From Ascidiella aspersa (lineage: Eukaryota), in assembly GCA_963924565.1 (NCBI GenBank), contig OZ004612.1, positions 6,262,001 through 6,326,000 of the forward strand: 64,000 bases of DNA, given 5' to 3'. Within the stretch, counting starts at the first letter, position 1. The number at the start of each line of letters is the position of its first letter. The notes beneath the pieces are model-generated. The model was not told the DNA's origin. It did not search any database and saw nothing but the letters and a program-made list of their open reading frames with translations. Both the position numbers and the translations under genes were made by a program. Of the stretch, positions 380-59,455 are shown in pieces.

Positions 380-3300
380 TCACCGGTCGGCGGTGGTTTT
401 GATGGTGGAGCGCCTCCTGGCGTTCACAACCGCAGCTCTCGAGCTACCCCGCGCAACAGCGTCGATGTTCTTCAGCCTTGGAAGCGAGTGGTTCTTTAAA
501 ACACCACAGGCCTTGACGCAAAGCTGCTCGACGGTGGCCGAGTAGAGAAGTGGGTTAAGCACGCTGTTAATGGGAAGCAGGACGATTGCGCTGACCGCAT
601 AAGCAACGCCGGACATTTGCACGCCGCCGAGGTGGACGTAGCTCAACACACAGACCGGCACCCAGCAGCAGAAGTCGGTAAAGATGAGGCGCGCTATGCG
701 GCTCTGCAGCTTTGCGTTGCGGTCGTTCTCGCTCGACTGTACGCGCGCGCGCCCTTTGCGATAGATGTATAAGTAGGCGACCGCTATGTAGACGAACAGG
801 AGAAGGTTGAGGCTGAGAAGCGCCGTCGAAAAATGCCACGACTGGTCGGCATGCGCGCTACTGAACAGGCGCGGCATGCACACGCTGTTCTCGCCGTAGT
901 AGCCGAACTGGCCGCGAACCGCGAGACCGTGGTGCCGCAAGTACAGCAACACGCTCGACCACGAGTTTACATCCAGGCTAGCGTTGACTCGGCGACTCAA
1001 ACGCGCCGCCAACTCGCCCAACTCGGATTTGCTGAGCACTTCGGATCGTGTAAAGAGGTTCGGCATCCATACGCTAGACGTAAAGTAGCCGCCGCCAAAG
1101 TCAAGCAGTGGAACTGCTGCAAGCGCGAGAGATACCAGCCACACTGATACCAGTAGCAGGAGTGCTGTGCGCTGTCGGATGTTGGACACTCTCAGGGGTT
1201 TGCGCAGAGTGATCACGCGTAAAGTTGTGGTGACCGACATGAAAAGGATCGAAGCCTCGCTAGATAAGACAACGAGGAAGCCGAGTAAGGAACAAGTTAC
1301 GCTCAGTCGCCACTCGCGGTCGCTGCTCCAGTAGCTGCCGGAAAAACGCAGCGAAAAAGCGGCGACCGTGGCCAGGTAAACACCCAGCAGTAGGTCGGCT
1401 GCTGCCAGGTTGAGCACAAGCAGCAGGTTGAGACTGGTGAAGGGCGAGCTGTAGTTAGTGTTGCGCAGCTTCCTGCAAACGGTGAAGATCACAATGAGAT
1501 TGCCGGCTGTGGCCATGAAGGCCATGATCCAAAGAAGGGCGCGCAGGAACTCGTTGGAGATCATTTCGTACACGGAGGAGAAGACTCCGGCCTCGTCGCT
1601 CCCATCGGCGCAGTCTGCGCGTCCGTCTTTCACGGCGCTGCGGTCAACGGAAAGCGGCGTCCCGCCCCAGCAGTAAAACCTCCCGGGGCAAGCATCCTCC
1701 GCCTCGTCCGATCCTCTCTCGCAATCCACCTTACCATCACACAGCTGCTTGATGTCTATTGTAGGGGGTTTCCCAGGGTCACAGGGTACCCTCGTGGGGC
1801 AGTCCCGTTCGTCGAAGCCTTGCGGACATTGCGCCCCAATGTAGTGCCAAGCTGGGTCCGGCTCGCCGTCGCAGTAGCGCTCGCCCATGCGGAAGTGAAA
1901 GCGACAGGGGTCAGTGCAGAAGGCTGGTTGCTCCGGGCAGTTTGAACACTCGTCACTCATGTCGTCGCACTCTGGTCTTTTGTCGCACTCCGTTGCCTGA
2001 ACAGACCCGTACTTTGTACTACAGTTTACCAGTCGGCCTTCCCCAACTGCTTCCATGGCTTGACAGTGCCTCTCGTCCGCTCCGCCTTCACATTGAACCA
2101 CCCCGTTGCATATGACGTCAACCAATTTGGAGCAGTTGCTTACGTCATTGGCGCATGGCATCTCGTCCAGTTCGCACTCCGAGGTGAAATTAGCGAATAC
2201 GTCCTCGCAAATCGCCAGGCTTCGCGCGTCTTCGCAAAAGCACTCGTCCGAAAGGTCGACGCAGTCCACAACTCCGTCGCAAACCTGCGATCGACCGACA
2301 GTCGTGGAGTTGTCGAAACATCGAAAGCAGGAGTTTGCGCTACACAAGTCCGACTTGTCCTTGCACTGCGCCACTTTATCGAGCAAGTTGGCTTGGGGGA
2401 GAAGGCAAGCGACTGGTGAGTGTGCCCCGAAGCACTTGAAACCGGAAACTGTGGGTTGGAGTTCGTCACTTCCGTCCGGGCAGTGCTTCTTGCGGTCGCA
2501 AAATCCCCGCAGAGGAATAAAACTGCCGTCAAGGCATTGAAAGGGCGTCTTGCATGCCTCGTCATCACAGCCCGAAATGCAGACAGTTTTAGATGAGTTA
2601 GAACTCGTATGTGGTACAGTGACGCACGTTGCGTTCACACCAGTCAACTTGCGCTGCATCATAAACGCTTTGGTAGCGTTTTCACCTTTACATACTGACA
2701 CCCGTACGACGCAGCTCGAGCAGGGCACCAAGCTGGTGGCACACGGCTCGTCGCTTCCGTCTAAACAGTCTTTAACGCCATCGCTCAGTTTCTGAAGGTC
2801 GATACAGCGACCCTGACCCTCACACGTTCGGTTTTCATTCCCCGTACACCCGCAAAGGGCCTGGTGTTGTGAGCAGTCGCACGGGATTTCATCACTCCAA
2901 TCTCCGCAGTCGTTCAAGCCGTCGCACACCGGCTGGGCATCAATCCAGGCTCGGTGGCAGCCTGTATCAGCTGGGCTTCCGACACACTTACACGCAAAGG
3001 TGCCAACTGGCAGGCTGCAGTTGGACTCGTCGCTCCAGTCGCTGCAGTCGTTAATGCTGTCGCAGAACTTGGGCTCCAGTACACAGCCGATTTTCGCTGT
3101 TTCCGGGCAAGAGCTAGGGTCCTGGTCGTAGCAGGCGCAAGGAAGCCACCCTGCAGTACATTTGCAGCCAATCTCGTCCTCCCAGCGCCCACAGTCGTTC
3201 TCGCCGTCGCACAACCAGTACTTGCTGATGCACCTCTCCGATCCTGGGCACTGGATCCTGTCCGGAACATTACAACAGGGAGGTTCGTCAGTGGCAAGCG

Positions 3301-6135
3301 GGCAGTCGTTGAGCCCGTCGCACATTTTAAAGGAGTCGATACAGGTTAAAGTGCAGTTTGGGTTGTGTGAGGGGCAGGGGCAACGACGCTGTTCGAAGGG
3401 GCAAGCGCACTCCATTTCGTCGCTGGCGTCGGCACAGTCGTTGTCGTAGTCGCACTCCCAGGCACCGGGAATGCATTTGGGCCCATTGCCGCAGTCCTGG
3501 CCCATTCTCCCGCACGCACATTCGAACTGATCATCACCACATGTGCAGTTCTGCTCGTCGCTCCAATCGTAGCAGTCGTTACGGCCGTTGCACCTCAAGG
3601 CTGGGTCAAGGCAGCCTCTGCAGTTGTCCCAAGCGCTTCCAGGTTGGCCGTAGCAGTCGCAGGTAAATTTATCGCCCGGGCAGGTGCAGTTGAACTCGTC
3701 CAGCCCGCCCGGACAGTCCAAATAGCCGTCGCATGTTTCGTTGGCGAATATACAGTGAACGCCCTTCGCGCAGACTGTGCCCGCCTGCCAGGGACAGTCG
3801 ATTTTATCGGACGCGCAAACGCAGTCTCTTTCGTCGCTGCCGTCGCCGCACTGGTCGAAAGAGTCGCAGCGTTCCGACTGTGGGAGGCATCCATTATAGT
3901 TTGGACACGTCTTGGTCGCGTTGGCGAAGCAATCGCACTGGAACTGGTTAGGCGAGCAAGAACACCCGGCCTCGTCCTCCCAGGCATTGCAGTTGTTCTG
4001 GCCGTCGCAGAAAAACGATTTTTTGGTGCAACTGCGGTCCGCAGTCTGTCCTGTGATCGCGCATTGTATGGAGCTTTCAGGACAAGGACAGTCGGCTTCG
4101 TCGGTTCCGTTTACGCAATCCGGCACGCCGTCGCAAAAAGTGGAAAGCGGTATAAGCTTAGAGTCGACGCAACCCTCTGTATTGTTACAGGGGCAAGGTA
4201 GCCACTGTTCTTTACAGTAAAGCTCATCGGTTCCCAGCATACAGTTCTCGACTCCATCGCACGCTGCACCCCTGGGGTAGCACCCTGCCCCCCCGTAGCA
4301 TTTTGGGGCTGGAAACTTGCACCCACACTGGAGCCGGTCCCCGTCGCAGCTGCAGTAGAGCTCGTCGCTTTGGTCGTCGCAGTCCGGGACCCCATCGCAC
4401 ACCCACCCTGGGGGTATTGTGGCCCCCAATTGGATGACGGAAGCGTTGTTTCTGGGGTTTGGGTGAAGTAGGGGTCCGTCATCCATCGGGCACCCACATC
4501 GATACGGTTTTGTGCAATGTTCTGAAGGGATAACAAGGCTAGTTTTATATGTTTGTGAAAATGTATGTTGCATAAATTCACGGATAATTTTCTATTTATG
4601 CGGAATTAAAACTTGTATATTAGATAGTAATTATTATTAATCAATATACTGTTGCTGCCAGGCATTGTTTCAATTGTTCTTTCGGCAAAATTTTATTAAA
4701 ATGTCTCTCTAGATATTATTAGCGAAACAAGGCATAACTGTATTTAAAAATGGAATTTACTAAACTAATATATAGGTAACATATTTATAAATAAACCAAG
4801 TTATAAGAACCATTTCATTTATTAAGATAATTATTGTATTGTTGCATAATAATTAACCCTAAAATAAAACATTTTGAGAAGCTTCTCGGTCATGCACCAA
4901 ACAACGCCAAATACTACTTAAAAATCATTCATCAAAGTTCTTTATCGATTTAACTATATAATAAGACATCAAACCTGCGCAATCGTAGCAGCGAATTCTC
5001 TTTTCCTGAAGAGAGTCCGCGAAATCGTTGACTGACGAACACCAGTAGAAGTCTACCCCCGCTGTAGTGCAGCTGTGGTAAACCTCACCTTTATACGTGA
5101 AGGGAAACACGCAGGTCAAGGGTGACGTCGTGCACACGTGACTTGCTGCGCCTGTGACAAGGCAAGCGAAACAGTCGGTTTATAGCCAGAACTATCCAGC
5201 CTTGCCAGGGGTTTTCGTTGAAATTGCAATTTTACGATTAGTGATACGGCCTTTACAGTTATTTTCATCCTTATGACCTACGGCACCCCTAAAAGATATT
5301 AAATAGATTTTCGGCACCCCGACTGGAATTTTCGTTGAGTATTTTACTGAAATATTACTATAAATGAAACTGGAGCATCACAATCAACTTAAAACAGATA
5401 GGAAAATGTCATTTAAGATAATGGTCTCTAATCGTACACAAATAGTTGTATCAAGAAGCTTACCAACAAAGCAAAAGTCAGATTCTTAAAAATTCTCAAA
5501 TACCTATCGGCACCCTTGGACATTATAAATGGTACATCAGGGCGCCGCGGCACTCCGGTTAGAAACCACTGCTTTAGTAGGTCGTTTTTACCAGGGCTGT
5601 GGAGTCGGGGTTTGGACTCGACGGAGTCGGTTTGTTTGTCTGGAATCGGACTCGGGACTAGAGTAAGACTACATAAAACTACCCGTGTCAGAAGTCATCC
5701 ATACGTTTCGCAACACATTAAAGTTTTTGTTTCGAAAATCGGAATATATACTTTGTCGGAAATCTTGAAGGTACAGATTTATCGAATGCTATGGTTAGAT
5801 CTTTTTATTAAATCAGTGACGTTTATGACTACGTTTTGTTCAACGCGTTTTTGGACCGCGATAGATATCTAAAACAACATGTTAACACATGGAATCCATC
5901 TACAAAACAAATTCTTTGCAACAATTAGTTTAAGGTAAATATTACCCAAACTACACTAAAACAACCAAAATATATTGTGAAAACGTATGGCTTTAGATGA
6001 TTTAATAGGCCAGTGACTAACTTAAGAAAACGCAAAAGTTAAATTACAAACAGGCTTACCTGTAACCAAAAAAGCCCACGCCAGAAGGCACAGTTCGGAA
6101 TTTGACGCCATTCGGGATTTGCCGCCATTCATCAT
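380..6135 (-). CDS. LDLa-repeat LGR/RXFP-type GPCR (GRL101-like but without LRRs) with N-terminal fibronectin type II domain; 3 coding exons
   Basis: Exon 6135-6060 (MMNGGKSRMASNSELCLLAWAFLVT, G|GTAAG). Exon 5151-4975 (GAAS then FN2-like CVFPFTYKGEVYHSCTTAGVDFYWCS; phase 1-1). Exon 4521-380 (CAG acceptor; joins the 1397-aa ORF at EHCTKPY). About 20 CDGxxDCxxxSDE LDLa motifs; hinge GVFSSVYEMISNEFLR; 7TM with LAAAD, FTDFCCWVP and NPLLY as in LGR/RXFP receptors. The ORF-track start at 4573 is intronic. Confidence 0.88.
5592..5800 (+). mobile_element. Partial MITE of the CAGGGCTGCGGAGTCGG family
   Basis: Starts CAGGGCTGTGGAGTCGG with GACTCGG-rich interior matching the copies at 41248 and 59706; right end not seen. 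Confidence 0.65.
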
Positions 6136-10810: not shown

Positions 10811-10910
10811 CAAATATTAAAAAAATAATTTGGGTACACTATGCACGGACCTGTAATGTAACTTGATAATAAATTACAAAACCAAAAGGTCGGGTATCGA
10901 CAGCATCTTG

Positions 10911-10952
10911 ATTAAGACGTTTCGATACGAGCTTGTATCATCTTCAGTTAAT
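10911..10952 (-). ncRNA. Minimal type-I hammerhead ribozyme
   Basis: AUUAA CUGAAGA u GAUAC-aagcuc-GUAUC GAAA c GUC UUAAU: canonical core, 5-bp stem I, 5-bp stem II, ACGU palindromic stem III, GUC cleavage triplet. Confidence 0.8.
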
Positions 10953-10954
10953 GT

Positions 10955-10996
10955 TAATACTGAAGATGATACAAGCTCGTATCGAAACGTCTTAAT
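10955..10996 (+). ncRNA. Minimal hammerhead ribozyme core (inverted partner; weak stem I)
   Basis: CTGAAGA 10960-10966, stem II GATAC/GTATC, GAAA 10984-10987, GTC 10989-10991; stem I pairs only 1 bp before a U-U mismatch. Confidence 0.6.
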
Positions 10997-12795
10997 CAAG
11001 ATGCTGTCGATTTACTCGACCTTTTTGGCTTTGCAAAAAAATTATTTGCAATAAAGAAAAACACGTCTGCTTTCAGAAATAGCGCGACAAATAGGTTTAT
11101 GACGCAAAATCGTGTTTGGTGTCGACCGATGCTTGAGAGTGCAGACCGTGTAAAAACGCTCATATGCAGATATCAGTGCTGGATTTTTTGTTTGTAATGT
11201 ATATTAGATCAAATGTTTCAGACACTTTCACCATTTCAGAAAAACGCTCATAATATACTACAAGGAAACTGAAACAATTTAAAATTTATGTGGAGTAGTT
11301 TTAAGTACTTTAAAGCTTAGAATGCAGTACTTTTTCTGTCAAGGAACGCCATTTTTTCAATAGCGGATAACACACAGCCGGGAATGCCAATTTGGCTCTT
11401 TGCAGCTCAATATGTGTACATATTAACCTTAAACAAACAAAAAATTGTATAATTTTCTCCTTTCATTTTGACAAATTAACAAATTCTCGCAGTTAAATCG
11501 TGTGCATAGAAAATTAAAAAAAAAGAGTAATTAGGAACTTTCGCGTAACTGTGAGATTATTTATTGACCAAACTAACAAATATTGCTGTGTCTGACTTAA
11601 CTTATCGTTTATAGTGTTTTATGAAAGCAAACTTAGATGTTTCATACTGCGAAAAAAAATATAGTAGAACATTAAATTTCAAAGAGGTAATTAGATCCTT
11701 AGAATTCGCAGCAAAACGCTTGAAAGATACGATTGTGCGATTCAAAAACAGGTTAGGGTTAACCTATAATGCTATTTACTGCAGTCAGATCAGTGGTAAA
11801 AACAGAATAATTTTCCTTTTGGAATTGCAATGACAAATTTAATACCTGAATGGGTTAAAATTATCCGAGACAACGTCATAACAGAACGCCTGAAACGAGT
11901 AACCTCAGTAAACCTGAGGTTGTCGTTAGGTTAAGTGCTCAAACGCAACTGAAGTCGTTGTTTAAATACATTTAAGCGCCTGGCGAAAAAGGTCTGGAAA
12001 AATAAGATTTGTTTTCAATTCTAACAGGTCAAAATTTTGTCAAAATAAATTATTTTTAGGTCAAAATTTGTCAAAAATTTAATTTTTCAGGTCAAAATTT
12101 CTTAATTTTTAGGTCCAAAAACCTTCGCCCTACGCAAAGCAATAACAAAGTGGCGCGAAAAAAAGAAAACACGATTTATTTTTATTTTTATTCGATAATT
12201 AAAAATGTACATTCAATTAAAACTAACGATTTATGAGTTGGATATTAAAAAGATTTTCATTATTAAGGAGATGGTTGTCCGATAATATCGGATCGGAGAC
12301 GATACTCGATACCAGGTGTATTTTTTTTATTAAGGCCAATGTACCTTGGTTAAAATTTATATTTTATGTGTCGTGATATTTTTCAAACGCTTGATAACTG
12401 AGATCAAATTACCATATTAATTTGATCTCAGTTAAAAAACGTTTGAAAGAATTGACGTCGGATTTGATGGTCGTACTTCATATACAAAATGTCGGGTAGG
12501 TCTCTGTGTATTTAAAATGACTAATATTTACAAATTTAGTTTTCCACCTTATTCTGTTTGGCTGTAATTGAGTTGTTTAATCTTGTTGGATACGTTTAAA
12601 ATTGACCGGAATCGATAAGTTCCACCACAACATTAGGCAATCGTTTACGGATTTCACATGTTTTAACAAGCAGCATAATTATCTGGTAAAATTTTTTCAA
12701 ACTAAGTATTTCTATTGTAGGAACAGGAAATGTCACAAATCACTAAATAATAGCTGTTTGAAAAATTTCGAAAGATTCGACGGGATTGCAATAAT

Positions 12796-15620
12796 TTAGC
12801 ATGTGCTGGCATATCCAAGGTGATCCATTTCACGGGCCAGCTGGCACATACCACACGGCTTCATAAAGCTGTTCATCACACAGCAGTCGCCACAGATGCT
12901 CCCCTGTTTAATAAAAATAAATTGAAAAGGACAGTTACACAGATATCTTATGAGGAACCATATCAAATACTAAATTCTAAACTGTATTAAATAGTACACA
13001 GAAAGCCAACGCAGACTCGCCGAAGTTGTCGATCAATGATGCAAGCAAGGCAGGCTATAACAAAACAACTTGTCTGCAGTGAGGTTCGTACTCACGACCT
13101 CCGGTTATACCGGGTCCGTTACTCTACCGAATGAGCTAAACAGGCTCGAATGTAAGTTCAACGCTTGTATCATTAGTGCGCCTTATAGGTATGTCAAACG
13201 CTTTTAGCATTGTAAGTTCAAACGGTTATTTTTCCAAGTCCAGTCTTTTGCAAAAAATAACAATTCAAGTTCCTTTCTAAGCCATCAATTGCCCAAGTCT
13301 GCGTCAAAGTCTGAGTGAAGTCACATTAAGAGCTATTTAACTTTATGTTCATTCATTAACATTCGAAATTAAACGTTAAACTATTAAAATCGGTAAACTC
13401 TCCCGTTTATGAGCAATAACTCAACTAAAAATAATAAAAACGTAATAGACAGAAAGCAAATTAATTTACGTGCACAATTTTAGATAAACCTAATTGTTAA
13501 AAAAAAAATAATTGATTGAAAACATTAATTTTAGCCCGAGTTTTTTGACAAAATGATTCAAGTCCAAGTCAATTTATTTGTCCGAAAGACTTAAGTCAAG
13601 TCAAATCATTTGAAAGCATTGACTGAAGTGCACTTAAGGTCAGGTCATTGACGTAAATCATTACAACCCTGAAAACAAAGGCTTCGCTGCGAAATGCCAT
13701 AAATTTCCAGCAATCGTACCGGTATGTTGTGTGTTCCGCGAAACCTTGACCTCATAGCCATGTGACCCCCAGGAACGCAGCCAGCGCCTTCACCGGAACA
13801 ACCAACACAGCAGTTTTCGTTCATTCTTACCGCCAAGGCACCAAAGTAGTTGTGGCAGCAGCAGAGGACGCAGCAACCTGTTCACACGACAGTTTAATGT
13901 TGCTTCTATATTATGTTCCGGAATAATCAGAAATGTTGTAAACAAGTCATTTTGAAATAACGTAATTCTCAGTCAAGACATTTGTGAAATAATTTAAGTC
14001 TTAGTCAAGTCCAAAATAGCAAGTCAATTCCCAGTCCAAGACAAATCTCAGTGAAATCATTAGAGCAAGTCATATTTAACTTAAACCACCATTGTAATAA
14101 TAACACAACTTACCGTGAAATTTGGTAAATTTAATAAATAATGAGCAATAATCAATTCAACTAAAAAAATAACGAAAAAACAACATGTAGCATTCTAATC
14201 GTTTTACGTGCAAAACTTGAGATAAATAGCTTTTATATTAAAATGAATTTTATATTAAAATGTTGAATGAAAACACTTGATTTTAACCCAATCAATGACT
14301 TATTTTTTTTTCATTACCAAATACGACTTGAGTCAAATCAAGTATTTTAAATACATGCTACTTAATATTTCAAATCAAGTCTAAAAGAGTTTTTTTCAAA
14401 TGTTTTCACTGGATCTTACAACACTGTATTGTTCCGTTTTATAAGTTTGAAGTGTATGAGGTTGGTTATTCCAGTTTAATTGTCTTGACGTTTTTCGTCT
14501 CGATGGCGTTTGACCAAATCAAAATTCCCTCAAAGATTTCGTTCCTGTGTTTTCACCTTTTAGTCCTACTACAAGTGGACGCGTTGATCCTAAATGAATG
14601 TCCTACTACTAAACAAACGCGTCTTTAGTGACGAAGAACCTATACAACGCGAAAGTCATAAAACGTTTTGCAACGGCCTTGGTGAAATAGTTTAAAGAGA
14701 TGGAATGCGTTTTTACTGTCTCGCTTTTATTTCTGGTTTAATAGTTCTGTAGACTGTAGGTAACAAAAAAGTTCAACAGCATTGCAATAAAAACCAAGCC
14801 CGAAACGTAAAGTTTTAAATACCGTAGTCAAACATGCCAAGTTTTACAACCGTTAGTTTCATTAAGCCAATTTGACAAAGTAAAAAACACTTGACTTGAC
14901 TTAAGTGGTTTCACAAATCACTTGATTGGGACATAGGTATTTTAAAAATGACTTGCTTAAAAACACTGTTAAATGAAATTGGTCTGCTCTTCAAAGTGAT
15001 TTGCCATTTGTTGTCACTTACAACTTTTGATGTCTTTGTAACACTCGCAGAGACCGCTGCTCCAGTCCACAACGGCAGCCTGCTGCTGTACAACCGTGGT
15101 TGTTTGGATGACAGGCTGTGCTGTTATCACTGCAGGGTTGGGCGAAATGTTGCTGAAATCTGGCGGCTGACCTTTATTCATGTAGGGTCCCTGTAGCATA
15201 AGAGTTGCGGATTCTCGGCAGGTAAAATACACGGGTCTATTAACAAGTGTAACCAAACGGGGATAACAATGGTTAATTTGGTACGAGCATGTTATTTTGA
15301 ACCAAAATTGGCGCGAAACAAACATTGTTGCGCATCTATATTTTGAATTTATATAGGCCGAGGTAATATATTGGGATTATAGTTACATAAACAAAGTAGG
15401 TCACAAATTAGGATCATCATATGATAGGCCCTACCTAAATTAATTATAAGTATTTTGTGTTCAGTATAGTCTTAAGACCTTAAGTTATGTTGATTATGAT
15501 AGCCAATTTTGATTTCGTTTAGATATAGAATCGGAGCTAATATATGGTAACTTGTACACGATATTTAAAAAAACGATAAATGGGTATATAGGCCAAATAA
15601 CTTACTCTATCCATCTCCAT
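12796..15620 (-). CDS. PLAC8/cornifelin-family Cys-rich protein, paralog 1 (4 coding exons)
   Basis: Exons 15620-15606 (MEMDR), 15190-15022 (GPYM...VITAQPV...DWSSGLCECYKDIKS), 13877-13720 (CCCVLCCCHNYFGALAVRMNENCCVG...AMRSRFRGTHNIP), 12903-12796 (GSICGDCC...PCGMCQLAREMDHLGYASTC*); all GT-AG, phases 0/1/0. Confidence 0.9.
13020..13148 (-). mobile_element. tRNA-derived SINE head
   Basis: Minus strand TAGCTCATTCGGTAGAG (A box)...GAGTACGAACCTC (degenerate B box); related to 59240-59455. Confidence 0.6.
13210..13671. mobile_element. AAGTC-repeat hAT-like MITE (decayed)
   Basis: AAGTC arrays; ends TTACAACCCTG; same family as 60119-60627. Confidence 0.65.
13932..14426. mobile_element. AAGTC-repeat hAT-like MITE
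   Basis: TGTTGTAAACAAGTC...TTACAACACTG, homologous to 60119-60627. Confidence 0.7.
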
Positions 15621-17189
15621 AGTGAATGCAGGTAAATATGCTTATAGTTCCAAACAAAACTAGCAAATAATAAATCAATTAGGTTTAAATTATGTGTGCC
15701 CAATCGGATTTAAGTAGAACCAAAGTGGTACAGGTAAAAACATGAAAAAATCAGAAAATAACAAAAACTTTGAGTCCCTTTTATGGTCTCATGGTTAATA
15801 TTGGGTAATAAACTAAGCATAAATCTTTGCTTGTCTGGTTATTTTTATTTGGAATTTTACTCTACGTTTCTAATTAGTTTTAATCATTCCAAAATCAACA
15901 AAGTTATGACAATTAAATTTTTCCATTTGAATTTTTCTAAATTTTGGTAGGAGGCCTACTGGTGAACTTCTATCACCCGAAGCGATATGGTAGATTCTAC
16001 GTGTGCTTAGCTGTGGCCATAATTGCCAATTTCGAAGTTCGACATCCAGTAAAAAAAATATTAGCAAAAAAAGCCTATAGTGATTGCATAGAGTTTTCAA
16101 CATTGCCTTCAGGACGCGTTTTTGAAAAAGCTTCATTTTAATAAAAAGGCTATTTTTTAATTGGCAACGGGAGTTTTGCTCAGCGTTCGTATAAATAAAA
16201 AACATTTTAAAACCTACATATTTTGGGCTTCAGGGTTTAGCCTACATATATTATTATGTTATTCCAGTTTGAATTTTATTTATGACTTCTGTCCTTTTTC
16301 ACATAATGTGTATTTCACAAAGGTTCGTATGATTTATTCCATTATCCACATATGTAGGCCTATTAGCTTTAGTAATTCTATAAGCGCAGGGCAATAGAAC
16401 ATCAGCAATACTGCTTAGCCCGAAAAAAAGGAATTTTAAACGGAGGCTTAAAATGCTTGCTTCCGAATTTGTCATATAGGTTAAACTTCCCAGCTTTTCG
16501 AACTATATTGAAAATAAAATTAGAACTTTTCAGTTTACCCAATTTAAGCTGAACTACGGAATTCGCGAAACCTAGAAATTTAACTCAAATTTAACCTATA
16601 AGCCTTATCAATTTAATCAATTGAAATAAAATGAACTTTATTCTTTATAAGAATGTAAACGGCTAATATTTGCACGTTAAGACTAGCGTTCGAATTAGAC
16701 AACTTTAGAACTATTAAGTATAATCCGACCTACAGTCCTCAAGAAAAAAACTTAAACTTTTCCTTAGGCCTACACCAAAAAACACCACGGTGAGTATTTT
16801 ACCCTGATTTGTTTTACGTTGATACTTTTGCTGCAATGCTACTGTTTTTACCTTGACTGCAATTGCCAAGCGAGGTAGCCGTATGAGTGGGCTGTAAAAA
16901 GTTTTCAGCGGGCAAACGCGACCGGAGTTTTACATACAACTTGTCTTTGTCGGAGAGAAGCAAGGTAAACTTTTTCGTAGAACTCATTTTTTGTGACAAA
17001 TCGATTCGGTTATTCAACTGTCTTTGTCGGAGAGAAGCAAGGTAAATATTTAACGCGAAAGCTCACAATGGAATTCACCACGCGATTCATCTGCAGGGTT
17101 TAATAGAAGTTTTTCAGCCTGCGTTGTCATGTATGGTTTTCGTCAATCGACGTGCCCGCCATTTCTATAGGGTTAATTTACATTTAAAT

Positions 17190-17494
17190 CAGTGCTTCTC
17201 AACCTATGGGTCGCTGTTTGATTTGGTTGGGAAATATTTATACTAATTGAGATTGGTACCAAGCAAAATTTCTCAATTAAGAAAATTAAGGAAGCAATAC
17301 AAATAATGTCTTATAATAACTATTAAAATTCGAAGTTCTTTATGCTAATGTCTAATTTTTCTTCGCTTACATGAACCTAGTTTTTATTTCGCTAACAAGA
17401 AAAAACAATTGGGTCGCCAAAGCTTAGGCCTACTCGTCATAATTAATTAAATCTTAATATTTGGGTTGCCGCGAAAAAAGGTTGAGAAGCACTG
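17190..17494. mobile_element. hAT-type MITE
   Basis: TIR CAGTGCTTCTCAACCT / AGGTTGAGAAGCACTG; 8-bp TSD ATTTAAAT/ATTGAAAT (7/8). Confidence 0.85.
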
Positions 17495-18123
17495 ATTGAA
17501 ATGAAGGTGCCACACCTGGTAACCGGATCTCGGATCATTATTCCACTCACTTTGTAAATTTTGGGAGTGATAGTCTGCGCCACATTTTATACGATTATTT
17601 TTTAATAATAGCCATAAATGTACAATGGAACCAAAATTAGACGACAAACAGTCAAAAGTGTAACAGATTAAGCCTGTAGAAGGTTTGCATTGAATTAGAG
17701 GAAAAATGAAAATTAATCGAGACTGCTCATAGAATTGTTGTAGGCTACCGTACTTCTAATGTACGGTAACTAACAATTACATTTTAGTGCAAATGAACAC
17801 TAGACTACGTCGCTTTACAAAAATCAGGATCATATAGTTTAGCGGCAATGCACTTAATTGTATTGTAAATACGTTGCGGAGTGACTACAGGATTAATAAA
17901 CAAAAGTAATCTATTGTACAGAGCGACAAACAAAAAAGAATAATACTGAACGGAAGCCTTGTAGGCCTACATGAAGTTCCGATACTGCTTGCCGCCATCA
18001 GGGCCTAGACTAGGCCAAACAAAAAAATATACATTCAGCTACTAAGCATTTAAAAAGGCCGCGCGACCGGGCCACGAATCTAGGCCTCAGGGAAGGTCCT
18101 AAAAAGCGGCCCGGAAGTATATT

Positions 18124-21100
18124 TTAGCAGTTGTCGGCGTATCCCAGTCTGTTCATTTCCCTGGAGAGCTGGCACATGGCACATGGCTTGCAGCAATAGA
18201 TCATGCAGCAATCGCTGCAGATGTTGCCCTGCCGAGGAAAATAGTTTTGCCTGGTGAGACAAACAATATTTTAAGTGTCATTATATGAGAGCACATTCGA
18301 ATACGCTATTTTATTACTTTTGTGATTAAAAATTCCGGGCCAAGCTTGGCTGGAGCCCTCTTTTCAGGGTCAACTGTTAGTTAAATCGGGCTTATTTCCA
18401 TGGAAAAGACAGACCAACTCGAATTATTTCATTATATTGAGGCACCAATAATTCCGTGGTGCTCCCTTTTCCTTGGTGGCCTAAGTACGTGCTTTTTTGC
18501 TTATTAAATCCAGCCCTACTGCTGTAGTTTATGTGAAAACCAAAAATAAACGCAATTCCCCGTTAACGCATAACTTTTTACGTCTAATTTCTTGTTTTAA
18601 GCTGCCATTTTTTTTTCGCAGAGTGAAACGCCTGCCGAGATAGACCGATATATCGGTTTATTGATAACATCGACGATATTTGGCTTCTACCAATATATCG
18701 GTAAATGTAGGCCGATATTTTAGTAGCCTACTAAAATATAATAGAATTTCTCCTGTACAACAAACAACCCAATTTTGATCAAAAAATTAGGTTTTAGCTA
18801 CACAGTAAGTTAATATGCAAAATATTAGTTTATATAATTAATAAAGGTATATAAACTAAACATTACTGGAATTTTATTTTTAATAATTCAAGTTTTGAAC
18901 ATTTCCCAGGTATATAAAAAAATCGGCATCTGTTAACAAAATTATAAAAAAAATCGGGTATCGGTCCAAAAAAGTGATATCGGTCGATCTCTAACAATTA
19001 CCTAACTAAAACAATAAGCAATGGTATTGCTGAGTTCTTATCTATAATATAACTGTGTTATAGTTAATAACACATCAATATACAATTTCTGAAAAATTGC
19101 GTTAAGGTAAAAGGAGTATGTAGCCTTAAGTTTTTAAGTCATATTTATCAATGAATTTAAAAAGAACGGACGAACCAAATAAAATAATAACAAAATATGA
19201 CACCAAAAATCCCACAATCGCGCAAAATTGGGCTCCCAATTTGCGTGTGTGGTACAAATTGTTAAAAAGCAATAATTATTTACCACGTCATCAGGTTATG
19301 TTTGCTAAAACAGAGCAGTTCCATGGACGTCGAAATATCTTGTTTATGTTGTTTGTTTAGATTTGTACTTTTGGTTTCTAAGCGTACCTAAACTAGCTTG
19401 ATATCTCCATCTAGCGGCAACAAAAACACAGATGTTTAACGAGATAATATGATTTTTTGGCAGTGTGAGCGATGTCGACCAAATAAAAGACATAAATAAT
19501 CTAGAAATGTAATGCTCAGATGCACACAACTGTGTTTAACGACAACGCCAAAATTTCATGGTGTTAAGTATATGCTTTTAAACTTTTAAGAGATTGTTTT
19601 TTTTGTTCAGACTTTAAAATTTACAAAGCACCAAGCCAAGCACTTCAGAATTAAAAATCATGATAAAACAACCGATATGAAAAACATAATGTTTTAAGTT
19701 TTTAAAGTATATAGGTTTGAAACAATGAATAAAAGGTCACAACAGAAAACCAAAGTGTTTAACATAGCACATACTAAAAGTTTCTACAAAGTGCAGTGTT
19801 TAAGCTAATATCTTTCACAGTTAGCAAAAGTTTGCTTTGTTCTAAATATAATATATTATACACAATGACACAGCATGTAGAGAAACAGAAAATTTCTTAA
19901 AACATATAACACGAAATAGTTTACTTTCAAGTAGCACACTTTGGAAGTACATTAGAAAAAGGCAATATGGGCTGCACCTTAAATTGAGTGTTATCCGATT
20001 GTGCAAAAGTGTTAAAAATGTTGTGCCAGCTTTGTGTATTGCAAAATGCTAATTTTGTTACTTGAATCGGAGTTACGTACAAGTTATAGAGTTTGCTACA
20101 CAACAAAAGTTGCAAGCCGGAGTACAAAAGTTGAGGTTTTAAAAGGAAACACAATGGTGTTACCGCACTTTGAATTGTGGCATTCGATACGGAAGAATGC
20201 CTCATCACTTGCACTGAAGCATATTTCACAGGCATATGTGAAACACTCAAAAAACTGCATTCATCACCATCACTCTCTTCAAACGAATTGCTTCTATTAT
20301 TCACAGATGTTGGTGGCTGGAGATATTCCATTTCCAAGCGAGTCTTCTTTGCATTTTTGTAGACAACATAGAAAGCTTGTATGGTAGAGGCAGCTGCATT
20401 TCTCTTACAAATTTCCTTTTTTCTTTTGATGCGAAGTTGAGCTTTCATCTGTCTGAGTCGCCAAGTTCTTTGAAAGCATGCAGCTGCTTCATTTCTCTGA
20501 GCTATAAGGATCGCTCTTTCTTGCCGACAAAACCACTTTGCCCTCAATGCACGCCACCAGGGAATGATTGTCTTAACACTGTCCAGCATAGCTTGAACCC
20601 TTTCCTTATGCAGGATTTCATACAACTCTGCGCTGAGGAAAACTGAAGAGCTTCCGAACTGGCAAGAGCTTGAAAAATCAATTGTCGCATAGGTGTTAGA
20701 TAGGTTTTTCATAATCAGTTCACACTTTTCAGTGGGGGACATGTGATGAAAATCCTTCGTTATGATACGATTTGTGCGCCGAGAGAGTAGAAATGAAAAG
20801 TTGTTAAAAAACTGTTGATAGCGCATTTTGTGTGGCAAAAAATGCCCACAAACCTGAATTGTTTCTATGATTCCGGAGGATTTTAACTGCTCTACAACAT
20901 GAAATGAGTCAAAGCGTTTTGGCAGCGATTCCTCATTCGGCTTGATACATCTGATGTAATGGCAATTCGTAGATGCCATTGTTTTTAACAGATTGTCTAA
21001 CGATAGCTTGAATTGTCTCAAAACGGTTTTGTTGTGTTTTCCTTTGTTTGCTTCGTGGTTTGTCTTGAGGCCTGGTTTCTGCTGCAGCAGACAATTTAAA

Positions 21101-24100
21101 AACTCGTTTTTGCTGTCAAGCAAAATCTCTACAATTTCAGCAGGCAGCTCATCCTTGTTTTTGGCGATTAAGCTGTCCGTTGTGTACTCTACCTTGTTTG
21201 CATAGTGGCTCACAACAAAACAAGGTGCTGCCTTATATTGCTTCGAAATAAATCTGTCTTTCTTAAAAGTCTGAAAGATTCTGTTCATAAGCTGAACAGC
21301 GTTTGTTGACCGGTTTAGTCTACACTCTTCATTTAACAACGAAAACAAGCTGTTTTGCGGTGATTCAAGTACCCGAAGGCATTCTATTTTATCAACAAGT
21401 TCAGACGTGTTCCAGATTATGTGCTCGTGACTTAGTTCCTCCTGCTGTTGCTTGAGAAAGTTTTCAACATAATAATGCTGAAGTTTTTCGTTTGCGTAGT
21501 TTATGCAGAGCTGCTCGAGGCCGTTTCGTTGAAAGCTCTCAAATCCGTAAATGTCAAGGAGGCCAATAAAACTTTGCACTTTATCATTGGCAGCGGAAAT
21601 TTCACTTACAATCTCAGAAACGATCCAGTGGAACAGCATCTCATAAATAGACTTCATCAAAGATTCCATACGGGCTGCACACTCCTGTTTGGTGCAGGAC
21701 TTCTTCACCACACTTCTTCTTTTTCCCTCTCGCTTTCGCCCAGCTTCTATGCGACGCACAGTAACAGATTGCACGAGGCTATTAACCGGAACAGCCAGGA
21801 TAAAAGCGGCAACCTTTAAATGCAGCTGGCAGTTTTGGCTTGGCATACAAGGATTAAAGTCGTCATCGCCTTTCAATTCAACATTACTCAGATGCAAAAG
21901 CGCAGAAAGAACCTTGAATATTTCGCACTGCTTCTGGGATGAAATTCCAATGGCCAGCATGGCTTTCTTTGTTACACTGAAGGCTGCCTCCGTTTCCATA
22001 AAGTTGTTGCCAGCAGACTGCTGAACATTGTGTTCACCTAGATTACACTGCATTGACTTTTGGAATGAAACATTGCTGTTGATATTTGAGTTGTCGCCTG
22101 CTTCAAAATGATTGATGTCCAGGCAGAATTTTGATTTTTCTTCTGGTGTGGTTCCATTAACAAGCTGATAAAAAATGTGAAAGTTTTTCTCTGCTGAATC
22201 ACGCTTTGCTACCCTTGTTTTTTCAAGCAGGTAAATTTGAAGAGTTGCACCAGCAATATGGCCAGACCTATCATACTGCAGCTGAATGTACTTCCCAAAC
22301 CGACTGCTGTTATGATTTCTCGCCGTCGCAGCATTGCCAAAGGCTTCTAGGACTGGGTTTGAACTTAAAATCCTTTTCTCGATTTGATGTTGCTTCGGAA
22401 AGTTAATGTCATATGTTGCATTACAAACAGGCTCATCTGAATGTGACATATCATTGTTATTTGTGTCTATTCCAATGTAGGTAAGGTAATGCATGAGGCA
22501 TGACACGGTCCACGTTTTACCAGCCCCGCTTTCACCGCTAATGACAATAGACTGATTAGAAAGACCAACACCAATTTCCATGTCCCTTCTGGCACGCTCA
22601 ACGACAGAAAAAACATGAGCAGGCATGGCTCCCAGTTCAGCCATCGTAGCTCGATGATAGGCAAGGATCATTTTGCGATTGAACATCTCTGTAAACTCCT
22701 GAAAGGGATTAATGGCAAGAATAGTTCCAGAACCAAGCTTGCGATAAAATACACCACATTCGTACATTGCACGTAACGAGTAGAGAACCGCCGGTGTGTT
22801 GAGCGATGTCATTTTCGATAGGTCGGAATGAAAATATTCACCCTGCATTTCTTCGTCAAAGCAATTCCAAGATGCAACTGAGTGAATATCCCTTCCGTGC
22901 AGTTTCATGGAGTTTCCGCCTAACGTAACAACTTCAAAATAATTGTCATTGTGTACTTCAGCTATTCTGACAGGACTCCAAACAGAGGTGTCATCTTTTG
23001 CCCAAACCCACATACCCTCATGGAAAGTTATACCGGATTGGGCAGCCATATTTAAAGCTGTGTTTTATAAAAATGTCAATCAGCACAGCAGGTTATTTAT
23101 GCAACTCTATTGGTAAAACTAACTTAGACAAACTAAAATCTGATGAATGATAATAGAAAATTAATGCCTGTCATTTTAATAATTACCAGTGATTAAAAAC
23201 TGGACTAAACAACTTTGAAACCTTTTAAAAACGCATAACAAATTAATAATATAATATATACCCAAAAATCATTTTGAAAAATTATGTTTACAATAAATCA
23301 CAATATTTAACACTTATATATATATATATATATATCTGAAACCCAATACCATGCAGCTAGCAAATGACCTGTCTTTTAAACTTTGCTTTAAAGGATATGT
23401 CAATCAAATAGTCACGACCCCAAAAGGATAACGTCAGAGTATAATTACTTCTCAAGCTAGTTAGTTTGGTCTACACCTCTAAACACTGAAAGTGTGCGAC
23501 AAATCGTTTGAAGTGCTATAACTTATGTATGTTTTAGCTAAAATGCAATTATGTAACATGAATTAAAAAAAATTAATGAGTTTTACGAATTTAAGTTTTA
23601 ACTTATTAAAACTAACGAAAATTACAAGCATGTAATTGTAAATTTAATAATTGTCTCTTTGCTCTACCTCAGCACGCAATTCGGCGCTGGTCTAGAATCC
23701 TACCACAACGAAACACCATTTGGATTAGGGTGCGGGTTAGCGTTTGGGTTAAGGTGGGTCAAGTATTATTATTAAACAAAGAATATAATAATACTTGACC
23801 CACCCACACCCGAACGCTAACCCGCACCCTAACTCAAATTTTGTGCGTTGATTTTAGAACTGTGGTAGGATTCTAGACCAGCGCCCGCAATTCTGCAAAT
23901 CACTCCTCAGCGCTCGATACTAATCCTAAAATTAATCCGGTGTTTTTTCTAGACTTTTTCAAAAATCTGCCCGAAGCATTTTTAAAGTTGACCTTTGCAA
24001 TTATTCGAGCGCGGCGAACCGAAGCGCAACACCTGTCCAATAACGTAACGTTTCTATTAAATTTCACGCAAACCAAAATTTTAATTAACTTGCTCTTGAT

Positions 24101-27245: not shown

Positions 27246-38696
<11,451 letters not shown>

Positions 38697-39134
38697 GTTC
38701 AGACGCTGGTTGATCACTAGACTCACGACTAAATGCTGAAAGAAATATAAATCGATTACAGTGGTTTGTCTATATTATATATATCAGGAAATGAAACCAT
38801 AAAACAACTTAAAAAGTCAGACGAATTAATTCATAAATTACATAGGTTATAAGACTTAGTAACAGAAGAATATTGCTAAAATTGTTATGAATACAATCAT
38901 AAGTTATAGCATTAAATTAAAAAGTTAACTAAAGCGGACAGACAATTTTGCTGCAAAACTACCCTTTTAAATGCCTACAACTCTTCACGTCGACTCGCGT
39001 TTCTATTTTGCCAGCATGCTGCAAGGCACATTAATGCTTTTTAACACAACAACCAGTAAAGCTTTTTGATGCACAACACTCAGTGAACCGTACCTCAGTG
39101 AAGCTGCTTTTCAAGTTGTAGTTGTTGCTGCTAC

Positions 39135-42608: not shown

Positions 42609-42756
42609 GGTACCTTATGCACGGATTTGTAATGTAGCTGGACAATGAATTACAAAGTCATTAGGATAATACAAGCTTGTATCGAAATGTCCCAATCAAG
42701 ATGATGTCGATCTACTTAAACTTTTGGCTTTGCAATTCATTATCAAGCTATATTAC
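42609..42756. repeat. Decayed second copy of the hammerhead foldback element
   Basis: GGTACCTTATGCACGGA...GTAATGTAGC matches 10833-10885; ATACAAGCTTGTATCGAAATGTC..AATCAAGATGATGTCGAT matches 10969-11011; outer arms 42629-42660 and 42725-42756 are inverted; inner left arm missing. Confidence 0.75.
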
Positions 42757-44022: not shown

Positions 44023-57171
<13,149 letters not shown>

Positions 57172-57710
57172 GTTCAGACGCTGGTTGATCACTAGACTCA
57201 CGACTAAGTGCTATAGAAAGTAACTTTACTGCGAGAATCCTACAAGGCGATTCGGCGAATGCTAAATCGAACCTGAGAAAAACAAATCTTGTATGTCGTG
57301 TTTTTTTACTGTCAGTCGCACACGTATCCAGCGATAAAGAACTAGTCGGAGGATTTTTTTATTGAATAAGAAATCGAAGCCGCGCTCTGGGAAACGAACC
57401 ATTTGTAATCGGCCAGCGCTTGTACAATGTTAAATTTGTGAATGTCGTATTGAAATACTTTACAACTTTAGGTATAACTGCTGAGAAAACAACGCAGCTA
57501 AAACTCTAAAGGCTCAGCGTTATCTGGCTTGCTGTCTGTTACCAATTTACGTTCAAAGCTGTATCAACTTTACGTTCTATAAATATATTTATAAAAGCAA
57601 CTCCCGTTACGTTGCGGCTCGTCGTTCAACGTAAATCGAAAACAGACTTGATGCCTAAAGACCGCAGTAGCCTCGTGATCCGCTGACAAAACAACTAGTT
57701 GTTTCTCTTG

Positions 57711-59239: not shown

Positions 59240-59455
59240 ATCTCGTATATCCCGTTCAGTCGGTAGAGAGACCGTCCCGGTTTTACCGGAGGTCGTGGGT
59301 TCGAACCTCATCGCAGGAAAGATATTTTCTAACCTTGCCATGCTTGAACGATAATCCTGATTAAGCCGAATGATTTCTGTAGCCTTAATAAAGGCATCCA
59401 TGTTGGTAAGAGGTAGGATCGTCCTACACGATGCCAAGCGGCGTTTTATTCATTA
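59240..59455 (+). mobile_element. tRNA-derived SINE
   Basis: TCAGTCGGTAGAG A box, GGTTCGAACC B box, non-tRNA body ending TTTTATTCATTAC; weaker relatives near 47970 (-), 50850 and 56065. Confidence 0.7.

Follow-up and report, generated by a model that had tools for sequence, protein, structure and literature searches.

Back-to-back hammerhead motifs in Ascidiella aspersa as a probable truncated insertion of an abundant Penelope-like element

Background

A 64,000-nucleotide stretch of the Ascidiella aspersa genome (assembly GCA_963924565.1, contig OZ004612.1, positions 6,262,001 to 6,326,000; this whole stretch is called the window) contains a palindrome of about 200 bp in which two hammerhead ribozyme motifs stand back to back. 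Is this arrangement a mobile ribozyme in its own right, an RNA kept for a function, or a piece of something larger? The initial annotation, made from the letters alone, proposed a small foldback family without an open reading frame (ORF) that moves as a unit. However, according to PMC8557442, an inverted 5'-truncated copy, a tail and a hammerhead within the pLTR belong to the standard scheme of Penelope-like elements (PLEs), and Cervera and De la Pena (2014, PMC4209133) described pairs of minimal hammerheads (min-HHRs) on opposite strands, 100-700 bp apart, that come from truncated PLEs. The min-HHRs of metazoan PLEs are reported there to cleave poorly.

Results

Structure of the insertion

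The arms of the inverted repeat (10896-10948 and 10959-11011) are 53 nt long, 100% complementary and 10 nt apart, and each contains the hammerhead core CTGAAGA-T-stem II (5 bp, 6-nt loop)-GAAAC-GTC, a pattern found twice in the window against 0.01 times expected by shuffling. The minus-strand copy (10911-10952) has the features of a minimal type-I hammerhead: the conserved core, stems I and II of 5 bp each, and, where stem III would be, a palindromic ACGT as its remnant. On the plus strand, the core in the other arm (10960-10991) lacks stem I, for which only 1 bp can form. The cut is predicted 3' of 10916 on the minus strand. Below, positions in the element are numbered from this predicted cut site, the first base after the cut being 0; the core begins at -32. 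An Rfam scan at E<=1 returned no hammerhead family, and only miRNA-hairpin look-alikes under their thresholds.

Numbered in this way, the 204 bp at 10833-11036 are two 5'-truncated PLE ends in head-to-head order. The tail-bearing arm (10833-10954, minus strand) runs from -38 to +86 and is 93% identical to another copy of the family, L037; its one-sided tail, from about +60 to +86 (10833-10859, minus strand), is coding in the parent, where it corresponds to codons ~18-26 of the ORF. The start codon of that ORF is at 10904-10906 (minus strand), 9 nt past the cut site, and its frame is broken in the window copy. The tailless arm (10959-11036, plus strand) runs from -32/-33 to +45. Between the arms lies a junction of 4 nt (10955-10958) that is untemplated by the element and specific to this insertion. 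Copies of a 14-nt target-site duplication (TSD), matching at 13 of 14 positions, flank the whole (10819-10832 and 11035-11048, both plus strand).

A second, older insertion of the same family, with a decayed core, is present in the window at 42609-42756; its tail arm is at 42609-42660 (to +35) and its other arm at 42665-42756 (from -26). The initial annotation had read the likeness of the two loci as a shared left flank. In fact, only 21 of 72 positions are identical beyond the element, and the sequence common to both loci is the element's own tail. Since the arms stop at +35 and -26 here, against -38 and -32 at 10833-11036, and the core is decayed, the second locus is a separate insertion event. 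Thus, what had been observed at the palindrome (the perfect repeat, the two cores with both stems on the minus strand, the cut position, and the distance to a PLAC8-like gene, see below) was accurate, except for this sharing of flanks.

The parent element

An autonomous-type PLE with the same terminus, which the initial annotation had suggested looking for, exists in the genome. A reverse transcriptase (RT) domain (PF00078) was recognized by Pfam in copies L081, L101 and L103 (E 2.5e-9 and 1.2e-7). The C-terminal domain of the long copies shares 36% identity with the GIY-YIG region of the full-length homolog P0028 (E 4e-15), and it is on this identity that the assignment rests, as Pfam made no GIY-YIG call on the genome's C-terminal fragment. 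Walking upstream from the hammerhead end, we found the RT/GIY-YIG frame, broken but collinear with that end and on the same strand, in L090, L101, L103 and L104, and L081 likewise has broken, collinear frames; an ORF with RT and C-terminal GIY-YIG is thus linked to the terminus, as in EN+ PLEs. The homologs are single ORFs of ~830 aa with 28-39% identity (among the matches listed, 120 of 200). The last 78 nt of the element, including the tail, are the first ~26 codons of the ORF; in a comparison of the translated terminus with a profile of 120 homolog N-termini, this frame was the best of six (E 0.002, weak when taken alone). The hammerhead-bearing pLTR therefore holds the start of the ORF, and the inverted 5'-truncated copy, the tail at one end (~27-30 nt, slightly under the printed 30-40 bp) and the target duplication (14 bp at the window copy) are likewise those of an EN+ PLE.

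The long copies are laid out like the stubs, with a short inverted arm on the 5' side and a tail on one arm, which is the long arm in L101 and the short arm in L103. None of the copies fetched has an intact ORF. Copies with the RT part are scarce (13 candidates), and all that were fetched are broken. Short tandem pieces occur in L085, and none of the fetched copies has a complete pLTR-ORF-pLTR structure. An extra Zn-finger-like motif between RT and EN was not seen by eye in the translations of L101 and L103. The family is real and ordinary in kind, an unnamed EN+ PLE with minimal hammerheads.

At two unrelated loci (L093:1790-1900 and L100:7740-7900) we observed the same hammerhead core with a different stem II; therefore, further PLE families are present in the genome. 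A sister family, ~73% identical, is found in L107. The long PLE copy in L081 is interrupted at 3222-4225 by a 1-kb element with inverted ends, and a 640-aa transposase-like frame (L102:6428-8347) adjoins another.

Copies in the genome and the question of movement as a unit

A search of the 308-Mb genome (75 contigs) gave 3018 first-look candidates, 40 of which were scored. Exact matches number 435 for the 32-nt core and 547 for a 25-nt piece of the tail; from these counts and a decay of ~4% per base, we estimate 1,500-3,000 insertions. Rather than a self-standing mobile ribozyme, the palindrome is one of well over a thousand PLE stumps, each likely made afresh where it landed. Almost every copy is a stub between 110 and 300 bp long (median 178 bp), and when aligned the copies have sharp ends, arms of ~90 bp, a one-sided tail and a centre that is different in every copy.

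We compiled two sets of insertions. The core-selected set, taken from the first core matches in genome order, contains 77 independent insertions; the reference L037 was left out, as were, here and in the first TSD set, six loci fetched twice or segmentally duplicated. Fifty of the 77 are inverted, and the tail is on exactly one arm in 47 of these 50 and on both arms in none. The tail-selected set, which avoids selecting on the core, was reduced from 259 matches to 152 independent insertions by collapsing those with a shared flank. It comprises 99 inverted insertions, only 8 of them with both cores, and 53 in which the inverted arm is absent. Target-site duplications were scored as well: in 55 of 98 insertions the duplication score was at least 8, compared with 8 of 400 pairs after shuffling, and in a second set, which still held segmental duplicates, the values were 47 of 53 and 24 of 400. 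Their length is 8-16 nt, mostly 11-14 nt.

It is very improbable that the palindrome is a non-autonomous foldback element of ~200 bp copied as a unit, like a MITE or a palindromic retrozyme. In favor of such an element, the target duplications enclose the whole palindrome, and the window copy's 20 top-scoring BLAST matches are all inverted and similar in size. However, those 20 matches were picked for their likeness, and the sequences of their junctions are all different. In the unbiased sets, all of the truncation pairs are distinct (99 of 99 tail-selected and 50 of 50 core-selected inverted insertions), most of the inverted copies lack one or both cores, the ends are asymmetric and the length of the target duplication varies. 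Two cores within 13 nt of each other are found at only four loci genome-wide, the window copy included, and each has its own spacer. Because of these all-different pairs and the rarity of tight pairs, the window copy is best seen as one in which both arms chanced to stop just above the core. A junction recurs only together with its flanks, in segmental duplicates (97.7-98.7% identity over 2-3 kb in the core-selected set; also L199-L202 and L203-L208). The non-LTR retrozymes (bioRxiv 10.64898/2026.07.22.740005) are likewise non-coding, derived from PLEs and provided with a type-I hammerhead, but form head-to-tail tandems in which every unit has its own hammerhead, whereas the copies here are head-to-head or single and have variable ends. 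We found neither a palindromic hammerhead MITE nor an ascidian case in the open-access literature.

The groups L199-L202 and L203-L208 (G000:C1, 37.6-38.5 Mb), in which the same insertions return with their flanks every 20-120 kb, are large tandem or segmental duplications.

Selection, transcription and the neighbouring PLAC8-like gene

The initial annotation also saw in the palindrome a self-masking ribozyme or a source of siRNA close to a PLAC8-like gene. The stop codon of a PLAC8-like last exon (12796-12798, minus strand) is indeed ~1.8 kb away. This exon has no match in Pfam, and a paralogous exon at 18127-18270 is matched at E 3e-5, under the curated cut-off. At least two PLAC8-like genes appear to be arranged in tandem at 12796-18270 (minus strand), with the Pfam match at 18127-18270 only. 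The long hairpin that a through-transcript would form was also rightly foreseen. In folding predictions, the transcript of the whole piece forms a hairpin of about -110 kcal/mol (z about -24) that would mask both motifs, the probability of stem I and of stem II being 0 inside it, and even in the single minus arm a private deletion creates a competing helix.

That the copy is kept as a functional RNA, as a masked ribozyme or siRNA source within a PLAC8 read-through transcript, is nevertheless hardly credible. In its favor are the perfect 53-bp hairpin with its extreme z and the intact core on the PLAC8 strand. However, the arms of an insertion mismatch at 255 of 4411 positions, a rate that gives an unbroken 53-mer odds of ~4%, so that such a stretch is to be expected in a family of this size, and the predicted loss of stem II in the full hairpin, together with the competing helix in the single arm, does not favor a working ribozyme. 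The conservation of the core among copies that a function would have led one to expect was absent: with 8 segmental duplicates of 70 left out, changes number 26 of 616 in the core and 208 of 5101 elsewhere (p 0.83). The arms differ by 5.8% within an insertion and by 7.9% from one insertion to another; of the rare variants, 181 are confined to one arm and 5 are shared by both. From these values, and because the cores decay like other positions, we see little evidence of either conversion or selection. In the RNA data, one run from the same species of which 6% was read, no reads fell on the unique flanks (11137-11900) or the PLAC8 exons, and the reads on the repeat come from many copies and from both strands; they neither support nor speak against PLAC8 read-through. 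With unselected cores and no reads on the unique flanks in that run, the proposed function found no support. What holds of the earlier interpretation is the assignment to minimal type-I hammerheads of the Penelope kind, in a mobile piece without an ORF whose transcript would be a long hairpin; the unit family and the function are what we abandon.

Ends of the arms

In the tail-selected set, the ends of the tailless arms lie near +56 to +62 and those of the tail arms near +87, in keeping with the two internal RT start sites demonstrated for anole Poseidon (PMC11167929). At the other end, among the inverted tail-selected insertions, it is the tailless arm that extends further upstream in 58 cases and the tail arm in 39. 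Of 112 arms that reach this far, 57 stop at -43 to -31, on both arm types, which gives 0.050 ends per nt (57 ends for 1136 nt at risk), whereas to either side of the zone the rate is 0.007-0.012 per nt (p 8e-21 and 5e-14); the zone was picked after the data were seen, and the end positions, taken from local alignments, are good to a few bases. Eleven ends at -34 may partly reflect subfamily variants at -35/-36. The mode, -39, is the A of an initiator-like TCACATT, 30 nt below a TATA-like TATAAG that is kept in both subfamilies (reference copies only). The consensus of the initiator is YYANWYY, which TCACATT fits. At the cut site there is no such excess: 13 ends lie in -5 to +4, and a comparison of 0 to 9 with its flanks gives p 0.32 in 251 arms. 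A bump of ends at the cleavage site that was present in 108 arms was gone in these 251.

Judged from the truncation points and the look of the motif, the pile-up suggests run-off at the 5' end of the RNA, that is, the start of transcription. Other causes are possible. The same spot is the foot of stem I of the hammerhead, at which RT may stall, and TTCTCAG at -42 is a good look-alike of a 3' splice site, so that a splice acceptor could be the cause; the nine arms ending above -41 have, by eye, no common upstream sequence of the kind that a spliced or trans-spliced leader would leave. An extra G derived from a cap is not enriched at the ends (8 of 21 against 18 of 70, p 0.20), and the RNA ends do not pile up in the 6% of one same-species run. 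In the open-access literature searched, we found no paper that maps stub ends to the start of transcription; the supplements of PMC11167929 and PMC4209133 may hold related end-mapping.

Discussion

With a probability of roughly 0.86, we interpret 10833-11036 as a dead insertion of an abundant PLE, two 5'-truncated hammerhead ends joined head to head with a 27-nt tail and a 14-bp target duplication, likely assembled on site in one event. In the mechanism that we propose, a protein of the element would cut an AT-rich target on each strand, with about 11-14 bp between the nicks, and reverse transcription would be primed twice, starting inside the 5' portion of the ORF at two sites, about +57-62 and +87. 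Each cDNA would head for the 5' end of the RNA and either stop early or run off at the start of transcription, ~39 nt above the cut site, and the two cDNAs would then be united by end-joining; the rare long arms might come from templates that start in an upstream copy. The motifs at the window copy would be back to back because both cDNAs chanced to pass the hammerhead. The hammerhead itself would work, if at all, in the parent RNA, as a dimer or assisted by protein, and in the window stub the hairpin would keep it from folding, while its sequence decays neutrally.

The inverted arm could instead have been made by self-priming, a fold-back of the cDNA, for instance with antisense RNA as the template, a route proposed for the Penelope elements of Adineta (PMC3846280). 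We consider this unlikely, although several observations speak for it. Both arms of an insertion are from the same subfamily (subfamily marks agree in 40 of 44 insertions at site -16, against 22 expected), and the five rare variants found on both arms point the same way; 63 of 99 junctions have 0-4 nt between the arms; and there is a weak negative correlation between the lengths of the two arms (rho -0.24, p 0.02, tail-selected set). The last observation, like the shortage of copies with both cores (14.8 were predicted by independence), is not accounted for by two fully independent primings; one guess is that long perfect palindromes are lost after insertion. However, the 181 rare variants confined to one arm, the untemplated or rearranged filler at many junctions and the -39 pile-up on both arm types do not agree with fold-back, and the tail is never on both arms, although either arm may be the longer. 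Because either arm can be longer, two primings are favored over the fold-back of one tail-primed cDNA. Fold-back on antisense RNA may be compatible with these counts.

Returning to two primings, a pile-up without an excess at the cut site suggests that both took place on an uncleaved 5' leader of the element mRNA. If so, the stubs could be a fossil record in which both arms are run-off copies of the uncleaved sense leader, primed on two nicked strands at two fixed internal sites, and the centre of the palindrome marks a start of transcription at the initiator 39 nt above the cut; we give this extended reading even odds. If it is true, it explains together the head-to-head inversion, the one-sided tail and the ~200-bp size class, as well as the need for tandem copies in making long insertions, and hammerhead cleavage plays no part in making the stubs. 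It makes exact predictions: an RNA start at -39, RT starts near +60 and +87, and no role for cleavage. The locus itself is mobile-element debris and matters little, beyond the caution that a Penelope stub can be all that lies behind back-to-back hammerheads or "palindromic MITEs" in an animal genome. The statistics of the ends are the only part worth carrying forward; they bear on how the inverted repeat and the tail of PLEs are formed, which is called undefined in PMC8557442 and was left unvalidated in PMC11167929.

Several known systems resemble the present family. In Pen2 and Pen2a of Adineta (PMC3846280), as here, the copies are 5'-truncated with an inverted copy on the 5' side and a tail at one end, the pLTR has TATA-like and Inr-like motifs, and pLTR plus tail includes the beginning of the ORF, 22 aa of it in Pen2a and about 26 here. 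However, their target duplications are 8-10 bp, against mostly 11-14 here, and the present family, of thousands, consists nearly entirely of stubs, with no intact ORF found. Penelope of D. virilis has a TATA-less internal promoter and an intron in that region (PMC2377424). The min-HHRs of metazoan PLEs (PMC4209133) have the same core boxes, an unpaired base before stem II, G10.1-C11.1, a short stem I and a palindrome in place of stem III; compared with those printed, stem II here is 5 bp, and the two predicted motifs have only 12 nt between their cores, a spacing at the low extreme of the range. The Poseidon element of Anolis carolinensis (PAc) nicks and extends both strands, hammerhead cleavage is dispensable for its insertion, and two internal RT start sites have been demonstrated in vitro (PMC11167929). 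The start of the ORF adjoins the hammerhead, two internal RT starts bound the tail and the targets are AT-rich in PAc and, as it appears, here; however, the RT starts estimated here from genomic ends would lie about 50 and 78 nt past the beginning of the ORF, the distance for the PAc stem-loop being 111-118 nt, and the ATG follows the cut site here but precedes it in PAc.

Other features of the window

An intronless frame of 1403 aa with many LDLa repeats and a 7TM domain is found at 380-4591 (minus strand), and a similar frame is present in L088. Another intronless frame, of 1045 aa with a myosin head (19927-23064, minus strand; PF00063, E 6e-165), is possibly a retrocopy. At 23713-23844 there is a hairpin element with 60-nt arms, 87% complementary, which contain GGGTTA-like units, and a 12-nt loop. 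Genes at 27880-38737 and 44657-57212 form a tandem duplication about 16-18.5 kb apart, with exon-sized blocks that are 92-99% identical and a purine-skewed repeat stretch. Two inverted copies of a tRNA-like repeat (13062-13145 and 59256-59328; Rfam, 32 bits), which has very deep contig coverage, are likely a tRNA-derived SINE.
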